IMG/VR virus record: IMGVR_UViG_3300030294_000676 | DNA: 64,000 nucleotides | Strand: one strand, 5' to 3' | Origin: a virus | Taxonomy: Duplodnaviria; Heunggongvirae; Uroviricota; Caudoviricetes | Shown here: positions 3,826 through 59,087 of the stretch, piece by piece | How the letters are laid out: the number at the start of each line of letters is the position of its first letter | Numbering within the stretch: position 1 is the stretch's first letter | Program-made: the position numbers and the translations under genes | Notes under the pieces: model-generated | What the model was told of the DNA's origin: nothing | The model's database searches: none | Seen by the model: the letters and a program-made list of their open reading frames with translations, nothing else

Positions 3826-4236
3826 CTAATCTTCTTTAAAATGTGATGCCTCTACAGCGAGTACATCACAAAGTTCATTATATTTATTTCCTTCGTGCCC
3901 TTTAACATGGGACCATGTAATATTCATTCCTTCAACAGCTTTATCCAATTCTGCTAATAGTTCTTTGTTTTTATTTCGTTTATTACCTAAACTAATAGCA
4001 CCGATAACATACATAGAATCACATAACATAGTTATTTCAGTATATCCAACACTTTTACACCATAAACAAGCTTCTAATGCAGCCATTATTTCAGCAACAT
4101 TATTAGTTCCTCCTGTTATAGGAAAAAATGCTGAATGAATTTTAATTTCGTCTTTTACAACAACAAATGCCCATCCTCCTTGATTTCTTGCAGAAGAATA
4201 AGCTCCGTCAGCATATACCAATATTTTACTCATCAA
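3826..4236 (-). CDS. rnhA: Ribonuclease HI
   Basis: DEDD residues present in VYADGAYS, NNVAEIMAALEA, CDSMYVIG and HVKGHEGNKYNELCDVLA. 136 aa. Confidence 0.75.
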   Translation of the reverse strand: MMSKILVYADGAYSSARNQGGWAFVVVKDEIKIHSAFFPITGGTNNVAEIMAALEACLWCKSVGYTEITMLCDSMYVIGAISLGNKRNKNKELLAELDKAVEGMNITWSHVKGHEGNKYNELCDVLAVEASHFKED

Positions 4237-4629
4237 TTACCAATCAATATTAATCATATACTCACCCGCTTCAATTAACCCTCTTTCATAAAGATCGTTT
4301 ACAATTGTTTCAATATGTGGATAAAAGTTTCTTTCCCACCATAAATCATTTTGACCTTTATAAGATTCAGGATGAAGTTCATTTATTTCTTCAACTGTAG
4401 TATTTAACCAAGTATCAAAAGAAACACCCATTTCATCACCATTTATTTCAAATTCTAATGAAGTATTTTCATAATAATCGGGTTCTCTTACAGGTATTGT
4501 TATATAATCTACTCCTCTACTTTTACAACCATCTTGTTGTTGAAACATATAAGGTTTTCCGTAAGTTTCTCTAATTAATCTATCAAGATCATATGAATTA
4601 ATTATTTTCTTTGTTTCGTATCTTAACAT
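4237..4629 (-). CDS. hypothetical protein (130 aa)
   Basis: ORF track. Confidence 0.55.
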   Translation of the reverse strand: MLRYETKKIINSYDLDRLIRETYGKPYMFQQQDGCKSRGVDYITIPVREPDYYENTSLEFEINGDEMGVSFDTWLNTTVEEINELHPESYKGQNDLWWERNFYPHIETIVNDLYERGLIEAGEYMINIDW

Positions 4630-4630
4630 G

Positions 4631-4945
4631 CTAAATTGTTTTTAAAGATTCTTGTAAAGCATCTTCTAATGCATCTTCATAATCTTCAAAGTCTTCTCCA
4701 TATATACCATCAGGTAATTGTTGGTGAGGTGTTGTTATATTATACATCCAAGATTCTTGAGAACAAGAATAAATTGTAATATGTATTTTATGTTTTTCTC
4801 TTAACCATCTTTGTAAAAGAGATTGAGGTGCATCATCATACACTAATGTAGGATGATATGGATCAAAAAATCCTTTTTCTTTAGCCAATACAGCAGTTTC
4901 AAAACTTATTGGCTCTTCTTCCATTAAAAATTCTTCATCTTCCAT
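4631..4945 (-). CDS. hypothetical protein (104 aa)
   Basis: ORF track. Confidence 0.55.
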   Translation of the reverse strand: MEDEEFLMEEEPISFETAVLAKEKGFFDPYHPTLVYDDAPQSLLQRWLREKHKIHITIYSCSQESWMYNITTPHQQLPDGIYGEDFEDYEDALEDALQESLKTI

Positions 4946-5035
4946 AACTATCTGTCAGCTTGTGAAAGTAACCACACAAGTCCTAAAATAACTCCTGTGA
5001 ATACTCCACCTATAAATGTTAGTAATAATCCCATA

Positions 5036-5896
5036 TTAATTAATTTTTTCATTACTGAAACTACTTGGATAAATACTCATATCTTTAAGATCTAAGAATT
5101 TACTCATAATTTCGGGTTCATATAAACTTATCTTTATATTGTGATCACCATCTTTAAGATAAGGATAGAAATTTGCACCAAATGCTATTTTACTCGCGTC
5201 TTCTGGTAACTGAGTTACAAGATAATCCCAATCAATTTCTTTATGAGGAGCACGTCCTACATTACCATAAGGAAGAAGTACAAAGTAATCAACTTTATCT
5301 TTCCACTCATTATAAATTTTAACAAAATCATCAATTGATTGTTTATCAGAAATTATATGATGAAAATTAAGTTTAATTCCATTTCCCACATAAAGTTTTG
5401 CTGCATTATCCCAATATTTTTTCAAATGTGGATGACAACTTATAGCAACTCCTCCACAATATTGTTTTGTAGCATTTAATAAATTTGCTTGTTCTTGAGG
5501 ATTAAATTCATCTAAATGATACCACATACCATTAGTAGTATAATTTGGAGTAATATCAAACTCTTCCTTACAAACTCTCATCAATTCAACAAAATCAGGA
5601 TGTGAAGTTGGTTCTCCACCACCAAATGCTATTTGAAAAGGTAATTGTTCTTTTGAAACATTACTGAAGAAAGTTTTAAATTTATCAACAATATTCTCAT
5701 AATGAGTTTCTTTCTTACTATCCATATAACACCACGGACATTCACCCTCACAATTTCCAGTAACTTTTACATCATAAAATTCTGGATACTTCAACTCAGT
5801 AATAGGTTTACTTGGATCAATTGCAAAACGAATTGTTTTACCATTACACCAAATAGCTCTATAATTAGCATCTTCTTCTTTTCTTCTTTTAATCAT
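5036..5896 (-). CDS. radical SAM domain protein
   Basis: CEGECPWC (Cx3Cx2C) followed by GGGEP. Subfamily not resolvable by eye (NrdG-like or QueE-like). Confidence 0.7.
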   Translation of the reverse strand: MIKRRKEEDANYRAIWCNGKTIRFAIDPSKPITELKYPEFYDVKVTGNCEGECPWCYMDSKKETHYENIVDKFKTFFSNVSKEQLPFQIAFGGGEPTSHPDFVELMRVCKEEFDITPNYTTNGMWYHLDEFNPQEQANLLNATKQYCGGVAISCHPHLKKYWDNAAKLYVGNGIKLNFHHIISDKQSIDDFVKIYNEWKDKVDYFVLLPYGNVGRAPHKEIDWDYLVTQLPEDASKIAFGANFYPYLKDGDHNIKISLYEPEIMSKFLDLKDMSIYPSSFSNEKIN

Positions 5897-16630: not shown

Positions 16631-16978
16631 TTAAAAAGGTAATATTATCATTAATTCTTTTCTAATTTCATAACTTAGTTTTTCAAACCAACATATAAAT
16701 TCGTAATTATCTGTATTATTAGTTAATGCAAATAATTCATGATCATAACAACATGAACCAAAACCTCTAACATATCGACCACAAACTTCAATTTGTTGAC
16801 TATATATTAACTGATGTGGTTGATCTGGATCTTGATAACCATATACACAACAAAGTCCATCGGGTTCACTTTTGTAATAACATGTCCAAAATCACCATTC
16901 TGATTGTGGTACATCATCAAATTCTTCTTCAAGTCCAGATTCAGGATCTATATCTAAATTTACTGTTACTAATCTCAT
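16631..16978 (-). CDS. Cys/Trp-rich hypothetical protein with an in-frame TGA (codon 16892..16894). Paralog of 16989..17267
   Basis: Minus-strand ATG at 16976-16978 to TAA at 16631-16633. One internal TGA in ...PQSEW[TGA]FWTCYY.... Both paralogs share a Cys-rich core and end in LPF. Confidence 0.5.
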
Positions 16979-16988
16979 TATTCTATTT

Positions 16989-17267
16989 TTAAAAAGGTAA
17001 ATTATTTCTTATTTCATCAGGTAAGTTATTCATCCATTCTATAAATTTAGGATGATCTAAATGTTCATCAATAATAAGTAGTCCAACAGTTGCTGAACAT
17101 TGTCCAGGATAACCTCTTGTTCCATTTACTTTTATCATATCACTAAAACTAAATTTATCATAGCCAATATTACCACCATAAAGACAACAACTTGCATTAG
17201 CACATTCCATAAGACAACCTGTAAAGAAATACCATTTATACTCTGAATCTTCACCGTATTCATTCAT
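16989..17267 (-). CDS. Cys-rich hypothetical protein (92 aa), paralog of 16631..16978
   Basis: ORF track. ...EYKWYFFTGCLMECANASCCLYGG...LPF. Confidence 0.55.
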   Translation of the reverse strand: MNEYGEDSEYKWYFFTGCLMECANASCCLYGGNIGYDKFSFSDMIKVNGTRGYPGQCSATVGLLIIDEHLDHPKFIEWMNNLPDEIRNNLPF

Positions 17268-17289
17268 TATTTTATAATTTATAATTTAG

Positions 17290-17360
17290 TTGACCAACCA
17301 GGACTCGAACCTGGGCGACATCCGTCAAAGGGATGTGTGCTACCATTACACCATCGGTCA
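17290..17360 (-). tRNA. tRNA-Gln (anticodon TTG)
   Basis: Anticodon stem CATCC/GGATG, loop CTTTGAC, T-arm CCAGG-TTCGAGT-CCTGG. Confidence 0.8.
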
Positions 17361-17369
17361 ATATAGAAG

Positions 17370-17456
17370 CGTACACGGCAGGATTCGAACCTGCGGTGGA
17401 ATATTATTCACCAGGTTAACAGCCTGGACCTGTCGACCAACTAAGGCAACGTGTAC
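17370..17456 (-). tRNA. atypical tRNA with anticodon GTT (Asn-like) but a long variable-arm hairpin (type-II-like)
   Basis: Perfect acceptor GTACACG/CGTGTAC, anticodon stem CCAGG/CCTGG, loop CTGTTAA, extra arm GAAT-AAT-ATTC, T-arm GCAGG-TTCGAAT-CCTGC, G73. Confidence 0.6.
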
Positions 17457-17457
17457 A

Positions 17458-17631
17458 TTATTCTTCTGAATGTATTTCTCTGTGACAATTAGCACAGACC
17501 ATAATACATTTATCTAATTCTTCTTTAACTTTTTCTCATGCTCTAGTATATCCTTTTGCTGATATTCCAAAATCTTTTTCATTTGGATCTAAATGTTGTT
17601 TCACCATGTGTTTTACACACTCTCATTTCAT
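17458..17631 (-). pseudogene. HNH endonuclease C-terminal remnant with two in-frame TGA codons (17623..17625, 17536..17538)
   Basis: Translation MK[TGA]ECVKHMVKQHLDPNEKDFGISAKGYTRA[TGA]EKVKEELDKCIMVCANCHREIHSEE* ends in the HNH CxxCH...H motif. The N-terminal half of an HNH domain is missing. Confidence 0.45.
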
Positions 17632-17639
17632 CCATTTTT

Positions 17640-17662
17640 ACTAATTTTTACTTGTTTACTAA
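17640..17662 (-). other. orphan tRNA 5'-half fragment (acceptor 5' strand plus D-arm: GGTTCGTAGCTCAGTGGTTAGTA)
   Basis: Canonical acceptor/D-arm sequence with no anticodon or T-arm following. It abuts the HNH remnant. Confidence 0.4.
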
Positions 17663-17690
17663 CCACTGAGCTACGAACCTTTATACCATG

Positions 17691-18056
17691 TTAAAACCAA
17701 TGTTCTGTATTGGTTTCATCAATTGTACCAACTATAGAGCGACGGATTTCTCCACCTCTACGAGAATGATACACAAAAACTTTTTTATCTCGAAAGATTT
17801 GTGCTAAATGACTAAAATTATCACAATTGAAAAAATTGTGTTGATTTCCTTGAGTATCATCTAAATAAAATGATTGTCTCCTCCAACCCATTTGTCGCAT
17901 TGTTTCAGGTACAATTTCAATTACTTCTGGAATAATTGGAATAACTTCTGTATAATTACGTGTTGCTTTCACATAATCTTTTACTTTAATAAGACATAAT
18001 ACTTCTGAATACAATTCACGACCATCTGAATTTCTTTTAATTGCTTTGTAATACAT
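17691..18056 (-). CDS. hypothetical protein (121 aa)
   Basis: ORF track. Confidence 0.55.
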   Translation of the reverse strand: MYYKAIKRNSDGRELYSEVLCLIKVKDYVKATRNYTEVIPIIPEVIEIVPETMRQMGWRRQSFYLDDTQGNQHNFFNCDNFSHLAQIFRDKKVFVYHSRRGGEIRRSIVGTIDETNTEHWF

Positions 18057-19790: not shown

Positions 19791-19808
19791 TTTATTTTGT
19801 TTAGTTTG

Positions 19809-19881
19809 TCACGATGAAGAGATTTGAACTCCTGACCCGTCCTGCATGAAAGGACTACTCTACCAACTGAGCTACATCGTG
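19809..19881 (-). tRNA. tRNA-Met, or tRNA-Ile2 if lysidine-modified (anticodon CAT), elongator type
   Basis: Fully paired acceptor CACGATG/CATCGTG, anticodon stem GTCCT/AGGAC, loop TTCATGC. Confidence 0.75.
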
Positions 19882-21925: not shown

Positions 21926-21930
21926 ATTTG

Positions 21931-22012
21931 CACATCAGGTAGGATTTGAACCCACGAACCTTTCGGATTAGTTTTGGAGACTAACTACTTTAACCGCTTG
22001 TATACTGACATA
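21931..22012 (-). tRNA. atypical tRNA with anticodon CCA (Trp identity: CCA plus G73) but type-II-like architecture (3-bp D-stem, long variable hairpin)
   Basis: Anticodon stem TTAGT/ACTAA, loop CTCCAAA, variable arm TCCGAAAGGTTC, T-arm GTGGG-TTCAAAT-CCTAC, discriminator G. It is the only CCA-anticodon tRNA found in the array. Confidence 0.6.
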
Positions 22013-22017
22013 TTTGC

Positions 22018-22096
22018 TCCCCCAAGGAGGACTCGAACCCACATGTCTCTCGACATATTCCGAAGAATACGCGTCTGCCAATTACGCCATTGGGGA
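22018..22096 (-). ncRNA. tRNA-like RNA with normal acceptor, D-arm and T-arm, but with two tetraloop hairpins (UUCG and GAGA) in place of an anticodon arm
   Basis: TCCCCAA-TG-GCG...CGC, then TATTC-TTCG-GAATA and ATGTC-GAGA-GACAT, then T-arm GTGGG-TTCGAGT-CCTCC and TTGGGGG. Confidence 0.45.
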
Positions 22097-22102
22097 ATTT
22101 AG

Positions 22103-22191
22103 TGGGGGCGGAGGGCTTCGAACCCCCATGTCTCACGACCGCTATGGTCTAACCTATATTTAGCTGCGGCTACCAATTTCGCCACACCCCC
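22103..22191 (-). tRNA. Leu-type (type II) tRNA-like with non-canonical anticodon loop ATATAGG (apparent anticodon ATA)
   Basis: Acceptor GGGGGTG/CGCCCCC, D-arm GCG-AAATTGGTAGC-CGC, 4-bp anticodon stem CTAA/TTAG, T-arm GGGGG-TTCGAAG-CCCTC. Confidence 0.45.
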
Positions 22192-22434: not shown

Positions 22435-23214
22435 TTATATTTTATCCCATTCATCATCAGACAAACTATTTATTTCTTTCTTTGAAGAAGGTATATTAAA
22501 ATGTTTACACCATTTTCTAATAGCATTATCTGATCTATTGTATAATTTACCAATATTAATAAATGTTTCTGTGCGAACTAAAGTTTTTAAATATTCACGA
22601 GTTATACCAAGTTCATCGTAAAAATCATTAGCTATTCGTTTAGCAGAACAACTTAAACATAAACCACTTACAGAAGAACTTGTTATAGTATTACCACAAG
22701 AATTACAATATAATGCATCTATAACTTTATCTTTAACATTTTTACCTTTATAATTATCAGTAAAAGCATGACAGTTTGGACATAATAATTTAAGATTATT
22801 TAATTCATTATTAGTTTTAATACCATCTATGTGGTGTGTTTCTAATGGAATAGGTTCTCCCATTCATTTAGTATTATCACAACATTCACATTTATGTTCT
22901 TTTAGATTATTTTTTAATAATTTATCTCTTAACTTACTTGTTTGTGTATATGCTGAATCTTTACAAAAGATTGTATCTAAAGTGTACACATTCTTAGTTT
23001 CATTTGAAGAATTTCTTTTAAAATGAATTGTGCTAATTTGATGTTTTTTTATCTTAGTTTGAATTGTTTCATAATTACCAGCAGTTAAAGGCAACCCATA
23101 ATATCTACACACATCTGCAAAAGAATAACTTTCTTTTACAATTTTTTCTAAATTTTCTTTTGAATATTTGTTTTCCATAAATTGAACTATTATATTAATA
23201 GTACAAAGATACAA
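22435..23214 (-). CDS. HNH homing endonuclease with an in-frame TGA (22864..22866) at a conserved Trp position. Listed as two ORFs in the track
   Basis: ...KEHKCECCDNTK[TGA]MGEPIPLETHHIDGIKTNNELNNLKLLCPNCH.... The CxxC...HH...N...CPNCH motif spans the TGA. Related HNH proteins have ...EW.GKP... at this point. Confidence 0.65.
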
Positions 23215-36471: not shown

Positions 36472-36486
36472 TTAATTTCAATTTAA

Positions 36487-36893
<407 letters not shown>

Positions 36894-45700: not shown

Positions 45701-46063
45701 CTATTCATCTCTAAAATCTTCACCATCTTCTTGTTGTGATTTCATAATCATTTTAACAAGTGGATGTTGTGATATTTTTGTTATTTGTGCAATTGAACAA
45801 ACTAATGCATACGCAGTTTCACGTTTGGTCATTGTTTTTTCAATTTGTTCAACGGCAACTGAAAGTTTACCGGCAAATTCACCTTGTGGTAAAACATTAC
45901 GTAAATCACGAATACCTAATGCTTCTTCTGATTTTCGTTCTTCATGTTTAATTGGGTGAAGTTTTGTTAATTCTTTTTCAACTAATAATGTGAATTCATC
46001 AATTGGGGTTTCACATTCATGGGCTAATTTAATAACCTCTACTAAATTTGTTACATCATACAT
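45701..46063 (-). CDS. paralog family C member (120 aa)
   Basis: ...VEQIEKTMTKRETAYALVCSIAQ... Confidence 0.55.
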   Translation of the reverse strand: MYDVTNLVEVIKLAHECETPIDEFTLLVEKELTKLHPIKHEERKSEEALGIRDLRNVLPQGEFAGKLSVAVEQIEKTMTKRETAYALVCSIAQITKISQHPLVKMIMKSQQEDGEDFRDE

Positions 46064-46149
46064 TTCTTTTTATCATTTTGTGTTTAACCTACACGAATTG
46101 TGTAACGCACTAAGCTTAATAACTTTATACTCCCTTAGTGGAGTTAAAA

Positions 46150-46193: not shown

Positions 46194-48347
46194 TTAGATA
46201 ATTGTTGAGATTTTCAACAACTTTTTCTTCTTATCAATACTTTTAAAAGCATTAGGTGATAACATTTCACAAGTTGTTCTATATAAACCACCTACTTTAC
46301 GTAATTTCTCTAATTGAACTTTTAATTCTTCAGTAGATAAAACTGTGGTTGGCTCAAAAAAAGGTTTAATGTGCTTAACTTCTTGTTTTTCATACTCATC
46401 TTTATTAATAAAGAAAGTTTGATTTCCAACAGATACTGGAATAGAATCTAAAGTTCTAGCAAAAGCTTCTGCTTCTCCTAAAGTTTTAAACCATTTTAAT
46501 CCAATAGAATCTTTATTTCCAGACCAATTCACACCTTTAAGATGAATTGCTTTAGGAGAATCAAATTTAAAACATGATTCACTAATACCAATTCCAATAT
46601 CACCTTTTTTCATAATAGATACACCTACAGGATCATTATCAATTGCAACAAAATAACCAAATTCACTAAGTTTTTCAATAATGATTTTATCAGGATGTTC
46701 TTTAGGAAGATATTGTTGAATTTCAGATAAATCAGTAATTAAAACTGGAGTATAATCTTTTAAACTTAAATATCCTTTTTTATCATGAAATTTAGAATCT
46801 GTATTTATATTTTCACCCCAAAACTGATAAGAATTTTCTAAATGTGAAAATTTACTAATCCAAACACCTAATTTATACCATTTACCAACTTCAAATCTAG
46901 ATACTTCTTTAGCCCAAACACCGTTATTAAATATCCTTGCACTAGCATTAGCACGTACAGGATTTGGATCAACAGGAATATAAATTTGAGTACTTTTATT
47001 ATTGAAACTAAGATTATAATTCTTAATATCAAAATCTAAAGTATTACGTAAATCAGTAAATCTTTTAAGAGGATATCTCTTTAGTATTTCTGTTTTAAAT
47101 AACTCATGAGAATCATATTCAGAAGTTGGAATTAAACCTTCTTCAGAAAATCCTTCAGATTCAAACCATTGTCCTTTATGAAATCCCCAAACAGAGTTTC
47201 TATGATACAAATGAACGATGTAATCTTTCTTTTTATACCATTGCCCCCAAGGTAAATCTTTTTTAATAGGTTCAACAAATGGAGTAGTATCTTCAGGAAT
47301 TTTTTCAGCCCATTTACCAGTATAAGCATTATAAATAATACCATTAGTGCCATTATCTTTAGTACCGATATTTCCACTACTATTAAATTTAGGAATATCT
47401 TTAACACATATACCTGTAATTGAAACTAAACCTGAAGTTGCAGAATTAAATTTAGTACCAATAGGATATTCTTTAATGGCACGTTCTAATAATGCAATTT
47501 TTGGATCTATAGGTTTTTCATCAGTTAAACGAGAAACTAATTCAAATTCCTCAAAAAATGTAGATGAATCACCAGCAAAACTAATTTTTTTACATTTTGA
47601 AAAATCAATATCAATTGTAAGAATTTCTCCAATTTTACGAGAAACATATCCATTTACATTACCAATACATTTTACTTTATCACCAATTTTAAGAGTTTCA
47701 TACCATTTAGGTTTATTGACTGAATAATTATTCTCTTTACACCAAACTTCAAATGATAAAATTTCATAAGAACTAGCTTTATTAGAAGTACTAAAAAATG
47801 AATTATTAGGAGAATTAATATCAATAATATCACCACACTCTCTATAACCAACTTTATCAATTCTTTTGAGCTTTGAAGCAGCAAAATCCCATTGTTGTTG
47901 ATTAGCACAGTGAACACCTTTAGGTTTATCAATAAATTCAGTAAGTTTACACATTTGTTCATAATTCATATCAAATTCAAACGTGTTGACACAAACTGCA
48001 CCAATTCTTGTTTTATTACAAATACGAACATTAATTTGTTCCATTTTTATAAAAACAAACTCTCTTTTAAGATAATTGATAATAACAATTGTTTTTTTGC
48101 TTTTTTCTTTTTCCCATTTTTTGATTGCTTTGTATTGTCCACGTCCAACAGTTATTCTTGGAATAACATCACAACCTTCTGGTGGAATAATATATAGCAG
48201 ATCACAGCCCAACATCTGCTCATTAGGATCAGCAGGATCATATTCAAATACGAGACATCCTCTTTTTTTAAGAATGTCTCGTATAATTTGAACATTAATC
48301 GGATTAGCAGATTTGGATGCTGAAAGAAATACTTTCAACTGTCCCAT
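46194..48347 (-). CDS. large repeat-containing protein (717 aa), paralogous to 59804..62461
   Basis: Shares YPIGTK motifs (AIKEYPIGTKF; ILKRYPLKRF), GKWAEK, and C-terminal KWFKTLGEAEAFARTL (compare KWFATKSEAEAFAKTQ in the 885-aa protein). Confidence 0.65.
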   Translation of the reverse strand: MGQLKVFLSASKSANPINVQIIRDILKKRGCLVFEYDPADPNEQMLGCDLLYIIPPEGCDVIPRITVGRGQYKAIKKWEKEKSKKTIVIINYLKREFVFIKMEQINVRICNKTRIGAVCVNTFEFDMNYEQMCKLTEFIDKPKGVHCANQQQWDFAASKLKRIDKVGYRECGDIIDINSPNNSFFSTSNKASSYEILSFEVWCKENNYSVNKPKWYETLKIGDKVKCIGNVNGYVSRKIGEILTIDIDFSKCKKISFAGDSSTFFEEFELVSRLTDEKPIDPKIALLERAIKEYPIGTKFNSATSGLVSITGICVKDIPKFNSSGNIGTKDNGTNGIIYNAYTGKWAEKIPEDTTPFVEPIKKDLPWGQWYKKKDYIVHLYHRNSVWGFHKGQWFESEGFSEEGLIPTSEYDSHELFKTEILKRYPLKRFTDLRNTLDFDIKNYNLSFNNKSTQIYIPVDPNPVRANASARIFNNGVWAKEVSRFEVGKWYKLGVWISKFSHLENSYQFWGENINTDSKFHDKKGYLSLKDYTPVLITDLSEIQQYLPKEHPDKIIIEKLSEFGYFVAIDNDPVGVSIMKKGDIGIGISESCFKFDSPKAIHLKGVNWSGNKDSIGLKWFKTLGEAEAFARTLDSIPVSVGNQTFFINKDEYEKQEVKHIKPFFEPTTVLSTEELKVQLEKLRKVGGLYRTTCEMLSPNAFKSIDKKKKLLKISTII

Positions 48348-51015: not shown

Positions 51016-51101
51016 TATGGATAAAAGGATTTGAACCTCCGACCTCCGGCTAATGTTTTTGTCTTGCTGCCGACGCTCTAACCAGGCTGAGCTATATCCA
51101 A
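51016..51101 (-). ncRNA. tRNA-like RNA with canonical acceptor, D-arm, variable loop and T-arm, but an expanded 18-nt anticodon loop
   Basis: TTGGATA-TA-GCTC-AGCCTGGTT-AGAGC-G-TCGGC-[AGCAAGACAAAAACATTA]-GCCGG-AGGTC-GGAGG-TTCAAAT-CCTTT-TATCCAT. Confidence 0.45.
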
Positions 51102-58676: not shown

Positions 58677-59087
58677 TTATTTATATCGAGGTAAATCTTG
58701 TTTAATTTTACTATATTCATTTCCTCCAATCATTAATCCATTTTTGTAAGCATGAATTTTATTTTCAGAATCAGTACACCATTCAAGATTTACTAATGAA
58801 TTATTTAATTTATTTCCATCTATATGATTTACTTGTAAATTTTCAAAGATTGGTCTAAATGTTAACATTACTATTCTATGAACATGTAATGTTTTTATTC
58901 CATTTCTATTTTCAGCAGTAAATCTTAAATATCCAAATTTATTAGGAGATAATTTTAATATTTTCCCTTTTAATTTTCTTCCAATTTTAGATATTCTATT
59001 TAAACTTCTTATTCTTCCTAAATTAGAAACTTGATATATTTCTTCATATTCAGGAATGTCTTTTCAGATTTCTTCTATTTCTTGCAT
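58677..59087 (-). CDS. NUMOD4 + HNH_3 homing endonuclease with an in-frame TGA (59064..59066) at the universally conserved Trp. The ORF track shows only the C-terminal 63 aa
   Basis: Minus-strand ATG at 59085-59087 gives MQEIEEI[TGA]KDIPEYEEIYQVSNLGRIRSLNRISKIGRKLKGKILKLSPNKFGYLRFTAENRNGIKTLHVHRIVMLTFRPIFENLQVNHIDGNKLNNSLVNLEWCTDSENKIHA.... Matches the NUMOD4 consensus EIWKDIPGYEGLYQVSNLGRVRSL with the TGA in the W position. Confidence 0.65.

Follow-up and report, generated by a model that had tools for sequence, protein, structure and literature searches.

How did a truncated tRNA gene and a broken gene for an HNH homing endonuclease come to lie side by side in the tRNA array of a phage? The question is raised by positions 17369-17680 (minus strand) of a 64,000-nt stretch, referred to here as the window, of the Caudoviricetes record IMGVR_UViG_3300030294_000676. 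The earlier note on this DNA had described a 57-codon minus-strand frame that ends in an HNH C-terminal motif and holds two in-frame TGA codons, next to a tRNA 5' half without anticodon or T arm, and had explained the arrangement by a tRNA gene destroyed by the insertion of an endonuclease gene that subsequently decayed. The frame, its motif and both TGAs are present in the sequence as described, and so is the tRNA half, which lies at 17680-17657 and reaches 18 nt further than the stretch then delimited. The core of the explanation is also supported, both by alleles of the locus in related phages (L090, L092) and by the wider endonuclease family. With a probability of about 0.85, the locus is the scar left by an HNH homing endonuclease that invaded the phage's own tRNA-Asn gene and later decayed. 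This reading is favoured because the insert is polymorphic (present or absent) at one and the same site, the tRNA fragment has been identified, the endonuclease family is linked to tRNA-Asn, and the endonuclease gene carries an internal deletion.

The window looks like part of a large phage. Its GC content is 30.8%, almost all of its genes are encoded on the minus strand, and they include 24 tRNA genes and one for a tmRNA. It was read together with two 10-kb extensions, about 84 kb in all, of a contig that measures at least 175 kb. The phage recurs as contigs in many bog metagenomes, and matches to the DNA of known phages are short (Lak phages, 72-75% over 260 nt; the HNH stretch; one tRNA-gene match). 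Relatives of the locus were obtained through an exact-protein index, using the protein of the upstream open reading frame (ORF), which is 87-98% identical in L088-L092; protein-guided scans for this ORF in IMG/VR and in JGI metagenome contigs gave no relatives.

In two of these relatives, L090 and L092, whose upstream protein is 87-88% identical to that of the window (the ORF DNA of L090 is 92% identical), the endonuclease is absent from the site. The stop codon of the same ORF is followed, after 10 nt, by an intact 74-nt type-I tRNA-Asn(GTT), GGGTTCGTAGCTCAGTGGTAGTAGCGCTTGTCTGTTAAACAAGTTGTCGGTGGTTCGATCCCACCCGTTCCCG, then by a 93-nt spacer and the same tRNA-Gln; both the HNH gene and the 88-nt tRNA-Asn of the window are missing. 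The intact tRNA that the proposed destruction implies is thus present at this position in related phages. In the window, the fragment (AGGTTCGTAGCTCAGTGGTTAGTA) likewise begins 10 nt past the stop of ORF 17691-18056, and it differs from nt 1-23 of the L090/L092 tRNA by its first base and one extra T. Its 15-nt D-arm motif TAGCTCAGTGGTTAG, with two mismatches at most, is expected to occur 0.08 times by chance in the window. On this alignment, the type-I tRNA-Asn(GTT) native to the phage begins at positions 17657-17680. That identification rests on the alleles of the relatives, because Rfam did not detect it as a partial tRNA, being given too short a sequence for detection, and the tRNA-Asn profile matched it only weakly, at positions 6-22 (E 1.5). 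An exact 21-mer of the fragment had no match in IMG/VR. The sequence downstream of the fragment lacks an anticodon arm, a T arm and a 3' strand that would pair with its acceptor. The heptamer AACAAGT, which follows the fragment, was probably retained from the resident tRNA after a deletion of about 14 nt, in which the anticodon and the 5' strand of its stem would have been lost; GTA/GTTA microhomology flanks this putative deletion, whose right edge lies within nt 35-37, the breakpoint being unplaceable inside the microhomology.

Homology to the endonuclease-free alleles picks up again at TATATTGACC, just before tRNA-Gln, and about 290 nt (HNH and 88-nt tRNA-Asn) stand in place of the 3' part of the resident tRNA and the spacer. 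The result is a presence/absence polymorphism at one site between conserved flanks: the insert is present in the window and in L003-L006 and L089, which carry the same relic, and absent in L090 and L092. In a further relative, L088, the site is occupied by a degenerate sequence resembling tRNA-Asn, downstream of which lie a tRNA-Gln unlike that of the window and one more endonuclease-like ORF; the tRNA-Asn locus is evidently a hot spot.

The 88-nt tRNA-Asn, which the earlier note had overlooked, lies directly 3' of the relic. It begins 1 nt past the HNH stop and is the sole tRNA-Asn in the window. It has the elements of a cloverleaf, with a CTGTTAA loop, a TTCGAAT T loop and a self-paired acceptor stem (GTACACG/CGTGTAC), and its minimum free energy fold contains the acceptor, anticodon and T arms together with an extra arm. 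The GUU anticodon and G73 are identity elements for the asparaginyl-tRNA synthetase of E. coli. Among 13 homologous long tRNA-Asn genes, compensatory changes occur in all four regular arms (17 of 18 pairs). Because the gene is absent in L088, L090 and L092, so that at this locus it was found only with HNH-bearing alleles, and because the same pairing recurs in L007, it is assigned to the inserted cassette, of which it would be an integral part. Genes of this kind form a class of 82-91 nt with a type-II-like D arm, a long variable arm and discriminator G, some with encoded CCA (L001 3090-3173, L007 4224-4311, L017, L039, L059, L060, L066, L068, L076, L078, L080). The long-arm kind makes up 13 of the 55 distinct tRNA-Asn genes near HNH genes and is spread over diverse large phages. 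No description of long-variable-arm tRNA-Asn in phages was found in the literature searched.

The link between this endonuclease family and tRNA-Asn extends well beyond the window. A database search gave 129 homologs, mostly called at 73-100 aa, with the consensus ..YKGxKCxxCGYxKCxxALEFHHLDPxxKDFGISxKGYTRSWEKVKEELDKCIxVCANCHREIH. Uninterrupted members are about 120 aa long and begin with an N-terminal zinc ribbon, M..(x)..C-[KN]-x-H-G-[EN]-[TS]..F....W.C.KC (L007, L009, L011, L022, L034). Genomic loci were collected by an IMG/VR scan with the family alignment, from which 80 loci of at least 519 matches were taken, 71 of them distinct. Same-strand tRNA genes occur within 1.5 kb of the HNH gene in 67 of the 71, and the nearest is tRNA-Asn in 42 of those 67. 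The tRNA-Asn share is 44/100 among adjacent and 11/333 among non-adjacent tRNAs (odds ratio 23, p 3e-22). L007, from an unrelated context, shows the same order as the window: a tRNA 5' fragment GCTTCTTTAGCTCAGTTGGTTAGAA, a 16-nt leader, the HNH gene, 1 nt, and an 88-nt tRNA-Asn. It is the closest homolog with an intact HNH gene (3863-4222), save for a single in-frame TAG at a position that is Gln in homologs, a sign that the phage may be TAG-recoded (code 15). A search of PDB sequences with the intact L007 protein gave only a marginal match to McrA (E 0.72).

Moreover, a tRNA-Asn profile search revealed many loci in which tRNA-Asn is split exactly at nt 35/36, CTGT|TAA. In L055 (1312-1928) the HNH gene lies within a group I intron (Rfam Intron_gpI, 70 bits) at this site, and in L040 (872-1140) a tRNA-Asn with a group I intron at 35/36 (67 bits) has the HNH gene just upstream. 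In L011 (1180-1683) and L061, which are without ribozyme, the HNH stop TAA is itself nt 36-38 of the tRNA-Asn 3' exon, and the insertion in L011 consists of the HNH ORF alone. Further tRNA-Asn genes split at 35/36 are found in L022 (1094-1307), L031 (1913-2178), L077 (2063-2231) and L010 (1659-1779), and several 35/36 insertions are only about 50-190 nt long and have no Rfam intron match. ARAGORN misses such split genes or names them tRNA-Thr. The loci compared show a family that appears widespread in large phages and tied specifically to tRNA-Asn and its 35/36 site. The anticodon region of tRNA-Asn is probably the cleavage target, and the putative deletion in the resident tRNA of the window, which would end within nt 35-37, was counted as consistent with that site. 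As a separate observation, the 5' part of a second tRNA-Asn, running as far as the anticodon, is present in L007 at 4457-5185; behind it come a PDDEXK_5-like ORF and a sequence that weakly matches a T arm (E 0.48), so that this tRNA-Asn, too, may be split.

The endonuclease gene of the window has been preserved in two parts that lie in different frames (Table 1). The C-terminal part, the last 45 residues, matches the phrog_2255 profile 'HNH endonuclease' (E 1.9e-17, profile positions 129-171), and the last 54 residues of the 57-codon frame are 69% identical to the end of the 181-aa HNH protein of Klebsiella phage Muenster (BLASTP, E 4e-27), which bears out the HNH assignment; the Pfam HNH model (PF01844) alone gave a sub-threshold value (E 0.057). 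At the DNA level the C-terminal part is 90.7% identical to L007 over 129 nt, and it retains the nuclease core motif HLDPNEKDFG...CANCHREIH. The N-terminal part, MDEMRVCKTHGET, bears the family motif C-K-x-H-G-E-T, and its DNA TGTAAAACACATGGTGAAACA equals L007 at 18 of 21 positions. Relative to L007, about 165 nt (55 codons) between 'GET' and 'HLDP' are missing and one extra base is left; the lost segment included the first CxxC zinc knuckle and the near-invariant ALEFH. No uninterrupted ORF runs from the family start codon, and the ORF from ATG 17635 ends after 18 codons. With its frame shifted and its zinc knuckle gone through this internal loss, and with TGA at a conserved Trp codon, the relic is a pseudogene of the HNH family, dead under any code.

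It follows that the 57-codon frame, which starts at ATG 17631-17629, carries TGA at 17625-17623 and 17538-17536 and ends KCIMVCANCHREIHSEE-TAA (stop 17460-17458), is not the ancestral gene for which it had been taken, since the true start is in another frame. It is evidently a composite whose first 12 residues are out of frame and have no counterpart in the family. Both of its TGAs had been read as Trp. The one at 17538 does sit on a conserved Trp codon of the family, which is TGG in 63 of 82 loci, mostly F or L in the remainder, and TGA only in the window; the one at 17625 is a frame artefact, and 'MK-W-ECVKH' is no real peptide. The database entries P0001 and P0002 are this 57-aa protein, derived from code-4 calls on short contigs, and such a 'protein' is an artefact of calling the pseudogene in code 4. 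In the variant L006, the one single-nucleotide polymorphism (SNP) in 2886 nt changes a conserved zinc-ribbon Cys codon, in the true frame, to Phe, which fits relaxed constraint as far as a single case can.

Table 1. Parts of the tRNA-Asn/HNH locus and its flanks, in the order of the minus strand.
Feature	Positions	Strand	Remarks
Upstream flanking ORF	17691..18056	-	121 aa, unknown function; left anchor of the locus in all relatives
5' fragment of resident type-I tRNA-Asn(GTT), ~nt 1-23	17657..17680	-	Acceptor 5' strand, D stem 5' strand, D loop
AACAAGT, putative nt 38-44 of resident tRNA-Asn (3' anticodon-stem strand)	17650..17656	-	L090 match 7/7; assignment ambiguous
A-rich HNH leader AAAAATTAGTAAAA	17636..17649	-	Resembles L007 leader TAAAAATTTAATT ahead of ATGGAT start
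True HNH start (ATG 17635) and first 13 codons MDEMRVCKTHGET	17597..17635	-	First half of N-terminal zinc ribbon
First 'in-frame TGA' of the 57-codon frame	17623..17625	-	Overlap A[TGA]GA of Met4 (ATG) and Arg5 (AGA) in the true N-terminal frame
Extra base 17596, C-terminal 45 HNH codons (HLDPNEKDFG...CANCHREIHSEE) and TAA	17458..17596	-	phrog_2255; L007 DNA
TGA at conserved Trp (..TR[SA]-W-EKVK..)	17536..17538	-	Column W in at least 90% of aligned proteins
tRNA-Asn(GTT), 88 nt, long variable arm (type-II architecture), discriminator G	17369..17456	-	ARAGORN; Rfam tRNA 39.4 bits
Right junction TTCTATAT and tRNA-Gln(TTG)	17289..17368	-	Aligned with L090 and L092

The TGA at 17538 is not the only one of its kind. 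Five in-frame interruptions had been counted across the window, all of them TGA. Four of these stand, at Trp positions (17538, 22866, 59066 and 16894), while the fifth is the frame artefact at 17625. The site at 22866-22864 is the single TGA in an otherwise intact HNH homing endonuclease gene (22435-23178, minus strand, 247 aa) beside tRNA-Phe; it corresponds to W105, which is conserved in at least 90% of homologs and is TGG in the 79%-identical relative L100. The site at 59066-59064 belongs to an otherwise intact gene with NUMOD4 and HNH_3 domains (58677-59087, minus strand; Pfam E 2e-17 and 7e-11), of which code-11 pipelines call just a 63-aa stub. This TGA lies inside the NUMOD4 match, at the position where the NUMOD4 motif has its conserved Trp. 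The site at 16894-16892 is the one TGA in a 115-aa ORF (16631-16975, minus strand) that is a paralog of the 92-aa ORF 16989-17267 and is called as a gene by no code-11 pipeline; the L092 ortholog reads E-W-W-F-W here, with TGG. The window was screened for stop interruptions only in part and strictly, leaving out stops closely followed by a start codon. Among stops of any type, only TGA 16894 and one weak TAA passed this screen, the other sites having needed homology, and no comparable TAG or TAA interruption was found in it. Plain decay is an unlikely source of four TGAs out of four at Trp, because, of all nonsense substitutions arising at random, TGG-to-TGA would account for no more than 3-9%, rising to 24% when GC-to-AT changes alone are allowed. 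The non-random character that the earlier note had ascribed to the TGA-only pattern is therefore real, and the pattern resembles the endonuclease genes of TGA-recoded phages.

One explanation of this pattern is that TGA at 17538 and in the other endonuclease genes means Trp, UGA being decoded late in infection by the phage or by co-infecting phages, so that the endonucleases would be silent early; we put its chances slightly below even. It is backed by homologs at 17538, 22866 and 16894, by the position of 59066 within the NUMOD4 match, by the otherwise intact state of the ORFs with 22866 and 59066, and by the rarity of TGG-to-TGA changes together with the result of the partial screen. In L088, moreover, a GIY-YIG ORF has three internal TGAs and zero TGG, and a second endonuclease-like ORF also contains TGA. 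The depositor's calls on the 175-kb contig L099 (JGI Ga0302286_10000016) of the same phage are in code 4, with a formyltransferase of 345 aa instead of 314 and the HNH gene read through its TGA; this call may be a low-GC artefact, and other contigs of the phage are called in code 11. Within the window, TGA terminates 17 of the 111 listed ORFs (15%), about 13 without the interrupted HNH gene and the ORFs nested in larger ones, and four of these stops form ATGA overlaps with a start codon, so that such stops are not depleted, and read-through of the formyltransferase stop would enter tRNA-Tyr. Trp is otherwise encoded by TGG (1.7% of codons). Neither a tRNA with anticodon TCA in the window plus 20 kb of flanks nor a TGA-interrupted gene in the flanks was found, and no late-gene block was identified in the 84 kb or so that were read. 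Code 4 for the whole window was rejected, as large ORFs are intact in code 11, the TGA stops are genuine and Trp is TGG. The implied rescue of the gene by reading TGA as Trp fails as well, given that about 13 genes of the window genuinely terminate at TGA, and the relic is dead whatever the code.

A precedent for such use of TGA is found in the Agate phages, which are TGA-recoded: their intron endonuclease prefers TGA over TGG for Trp, replication genes are in the standard code, and TGA use was proposed to delay endonuclease production (Borges et al., 10.1101/2021.08.26.457843). The window resembles these code-4 phages in having endonuclease genes with TGA at Trp beside neighbouring genes in standard code, at low GC. 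It differs from recoded phages in that no suppressor tRNA or recoded late genes were seen in 84 kb, TGA accounts for 15% of ORF ends, and the source is bog or peat and not gut. The pattern thus fits late-stage TGA-to-Trp recoding, which is unproven; the concentration of TGA at Trp codons of endonuclease genes is a cheap marker by which this bog phage group can be checked for late recoding. Two observations on L088 belong beside this. Its GIY-YIG ORF (1593-2225) sits exactly where the window has tRNA-Met 19808-19881, and two of its TGAs fall at positions that correspond to the conserved RW..H and FWI of I-TevI. The second endonuclease-like ORF of L088 (4085-4216) begins MGKLKT-TGA-NDDQF; the 121-aa protein upstream of the L088 locus shares 88% identity with its window counterpart.

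Returning to the invasion of tRNA-Asn, the following course of events may be proposed. The ancestral locus would have consisted of the 121-aa ORF, a type-I tRNA-Asn(GTT), the 93-nt spacer and tRNA-Gln, and the cassette of an HNH gene of about 120 aa (zinc ribbon and C-terminal HNH domain), 1 nt, and a complete long-arm tRNA-Asn(GTT). Genes for tRNA-Asn, cut around 35/36, are the probable target of the endonuclease family. In a co-infection, a genome with the endonuclease would then have served as repair template, which would have copied the HNH gene and its tRNA-Asn into the site, this being the likely direction and mechanism, with replacement of the stretch from the D arm/anticodon region of the resident tRNA to just before tRNA-Gln. 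The imported tRNA-Asn presumably now replaces the Asn-decoding function of the destroyed tRNA. Once fixed, the endonuclease gene would have decayed, with the loss of about 165 nt, the frameshift and the TGA at the conserved Trp.

Several points weigh against this course of events. The relic-bearing close relatives are 99.9-100% identical to the window, and so they carry no independent information. AACAAGT aligns about equally well to the HNH leader and N-terminal codons of L007, and the exact breakpoints are ambiguous in AT-rich sequence of low complexity. The 'intact' tRNA-Asn of L090/L092 has two U-U mismatches in its acceptor stem, and these, together with the degenerate copy in L088, mean that the resident tRNA-Asn may already have been decaying for other reasons. 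The window copy lacks a group I ribozyme and so is not itself an intron: no Intron_gpI was found in the window at the gathering threshold, and none around the relic at E values up to 10. Finally, a one-step replacement and an insertion beside the tRNA with later deletions fit the observations alike.

The latter possibility was weighed in its own right. The cassette could have landed just downstream of an intact tRNA-Asn, with the redundant resident tRNA and the HNH gene being eroded later by unrelated deletions. A complete tRNA-Asn directly upstream of the HNH ORF is indeed the commonest layout of the family (about 25 loci), L038 has tRNA-Asn on both sides of the HNH gene and L070 has three downstream, and the two tRNA pieces seemingly held by the relic (nt 1-23 and 38-44) would mean more than one lesion. 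However, the L007 fragment is broken at the same place, after GGTTAG, before the same cassette in a different context, fragments ending at about nt 24-31 stand directly before the HNH gene in L021, L079 and L011, and the 93-nt spacer of the L090 type is also gone from the window, which fits a single replacement. Later erosion therefore appears quite unlikely, and the invasion of tRNA-Asn itself remains the preferred reading.

It is highly improbable that the HNH ORF belongs to the intron of a split or interrupted tRNA, in the manner of L055 or L011, with the 5' half as one of the exons. Arrangements of this type do exist in the family (L055, L011, L022) and are missed by ARAGORN; in the window, however, there is no downstream complement of the acceptor strand AGGTTCG/GGTTCGT, the downstream tRNA pairs its own acceptor, the fragment stops before the anticodon, and endonuclease-free relatives have a contiguous tRNA. 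For want of a complementary 3' acceptor strand and of a group I core, a split or intron tRNA was rejected. A functional miniature HNH protein translated from the 57-codon frame with TGA as Trp is hardly credible either, for although code-4 gene callers predicted exactly this protein, with an intact HNH motif at the C-terminus, the 12 residues at its start are foreign to the family, ALEFH and the first CxxC are missing, the start codon and N-terminal motif typical of the family are found further upstream and out of frame with it, and the shortest apparently complete members have 73 aa and include the first CxxC.

Invasion of the tRNA-Asn gene also finds parallels in known systems. Group I introns at 35/36 of tRNA-Asn(GUU) have been described in Patescibacteria, where four of them encode HNH endonucleases and the intron-bearing genes are misannotated as tRNA-Thr by ARAGORN (mSystems 2026, PMC13011429). 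The phage family shares with them the tRNA-Asn GUU target and the HNH superfamily (PF01844), the introns of L055 and L040 being exactly at 35/36; the likeness at the level of the endonucleases is one of published description. The putative deletion in the window relic would end within nt 35-37, its breakpoint being unplaceable inside the microhomology and the AACAAGT alignment ambiguous. Unlike the Patescibacteria introns, the window copy has no ribozyme or exon pair, and is free-standing and decayed, in a phage tRNA array, together with a complete long-arm tRNA-Asn. SegB of phage T4 is another free-standing endonuclease encoded in a tRNA cluster. It targets a motif conserved among tRNA genes and is passed on along with the tRNA genes next to it, to the detriment of the recipient's tRNA region (PMC2330249). 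As with SegB, the HNH gene of the window lies inside a tRNA array (24 tRNAs) and appears co-inherited with an adjacent tRNA gene, and L007 has the same pairing. The differences are that SegB is a GIY-YIG enzyme whose site is the T-psi-C stem-loop common to many tRNAs, whereas the relic comes from an HNH family associated with one tRNA species, and that SegB activity was shown experimentally, whereas the HNH family is known here from sequence. Gp467 of phage Muenster (QOE32633) also lies beside a long-variable-arm tRNA-Asn(GTT) in a tRNA array; unlike the relic, it is intact, with 181 aa and an extra NUMOD3-type N-terminal region, and its tRNA-Asn is upstream, not downstream. The locus records an ordinary kind of event, documented unusually cleanly, in which the tRNA-Asn-linked HNH gene is free-standing and dead.

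The locus supplies a clean before/after pair for homing inside a phage tRNA array, and it connects one HNH family of large phages to a 35/36 site only recently described in Patescibacteria. The long-arm tRNA-Asn genes that travel with the HNH gene and the endonuclease-specific TGA codons are two leads. Taken together, they allow the rather doubtful idea that the HNH gene and the long-arm tRNA-Asn form a natural 'cleave-and-rescue' unit, with endonuclease genes that are also kept silent until late infection by TGA-for-Trp. If this were true, type-I tRNA-Asn would be cut at 35/36 while the unit's own divergent tRNA-Asn would presumably be resistant, and invaded phages would keep Asn decoding and grow dependent on the cassette. 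For annotation, the lesson is that the 57-aa 'protein' is an artefact and that ARAGORN misses or misnames intron-split tRNA-Asn.

Some other RNA genes of the window, all on the minus strand, are unusual in their own right. The gene at 22016-22097, named 'tRNA-??? (tc)' by ARAGORN, has acceptor, D, variable and T arms, and its anticodon arm is a 6-bp stem with a UUCG tetraloop and no anticodon; its product may act as a decoy or be some other tRNA-like RNA that does not decode. It is flanked by an 82-nt tRNA-Trp(CCA) with an extended variable region (21930-22011) and by a 90-nt 'tRNA-Tyr(ATA)' with a 4-bp anticodon stem (22102-22191), and all three are unusual in length and structure. The sequence at 51016-51101 scores 47.5 bits as an Rfam tRNA, was missed by ARAGORN and has an anticodon stem that encloses 18 nt, AGCAAGACAAAAACATTA, and not 7; it may be a tRNA with a mini-insertion or a non-canonical tRNA. 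It was rejected as an opal suppressor, the 18-nt anticodon 'loop' being without TCA. The phage tmRNA is located at 36485-36893 (107 bits) and encodes the tag peptide GNKTISFARTAFMAAA. A match to the Pistol ribozyme (41.6 bits against an Rfam gathering threshold of 34.5) lies at 46083-46144, between ORFs 45701-46063 and 46194-48347.

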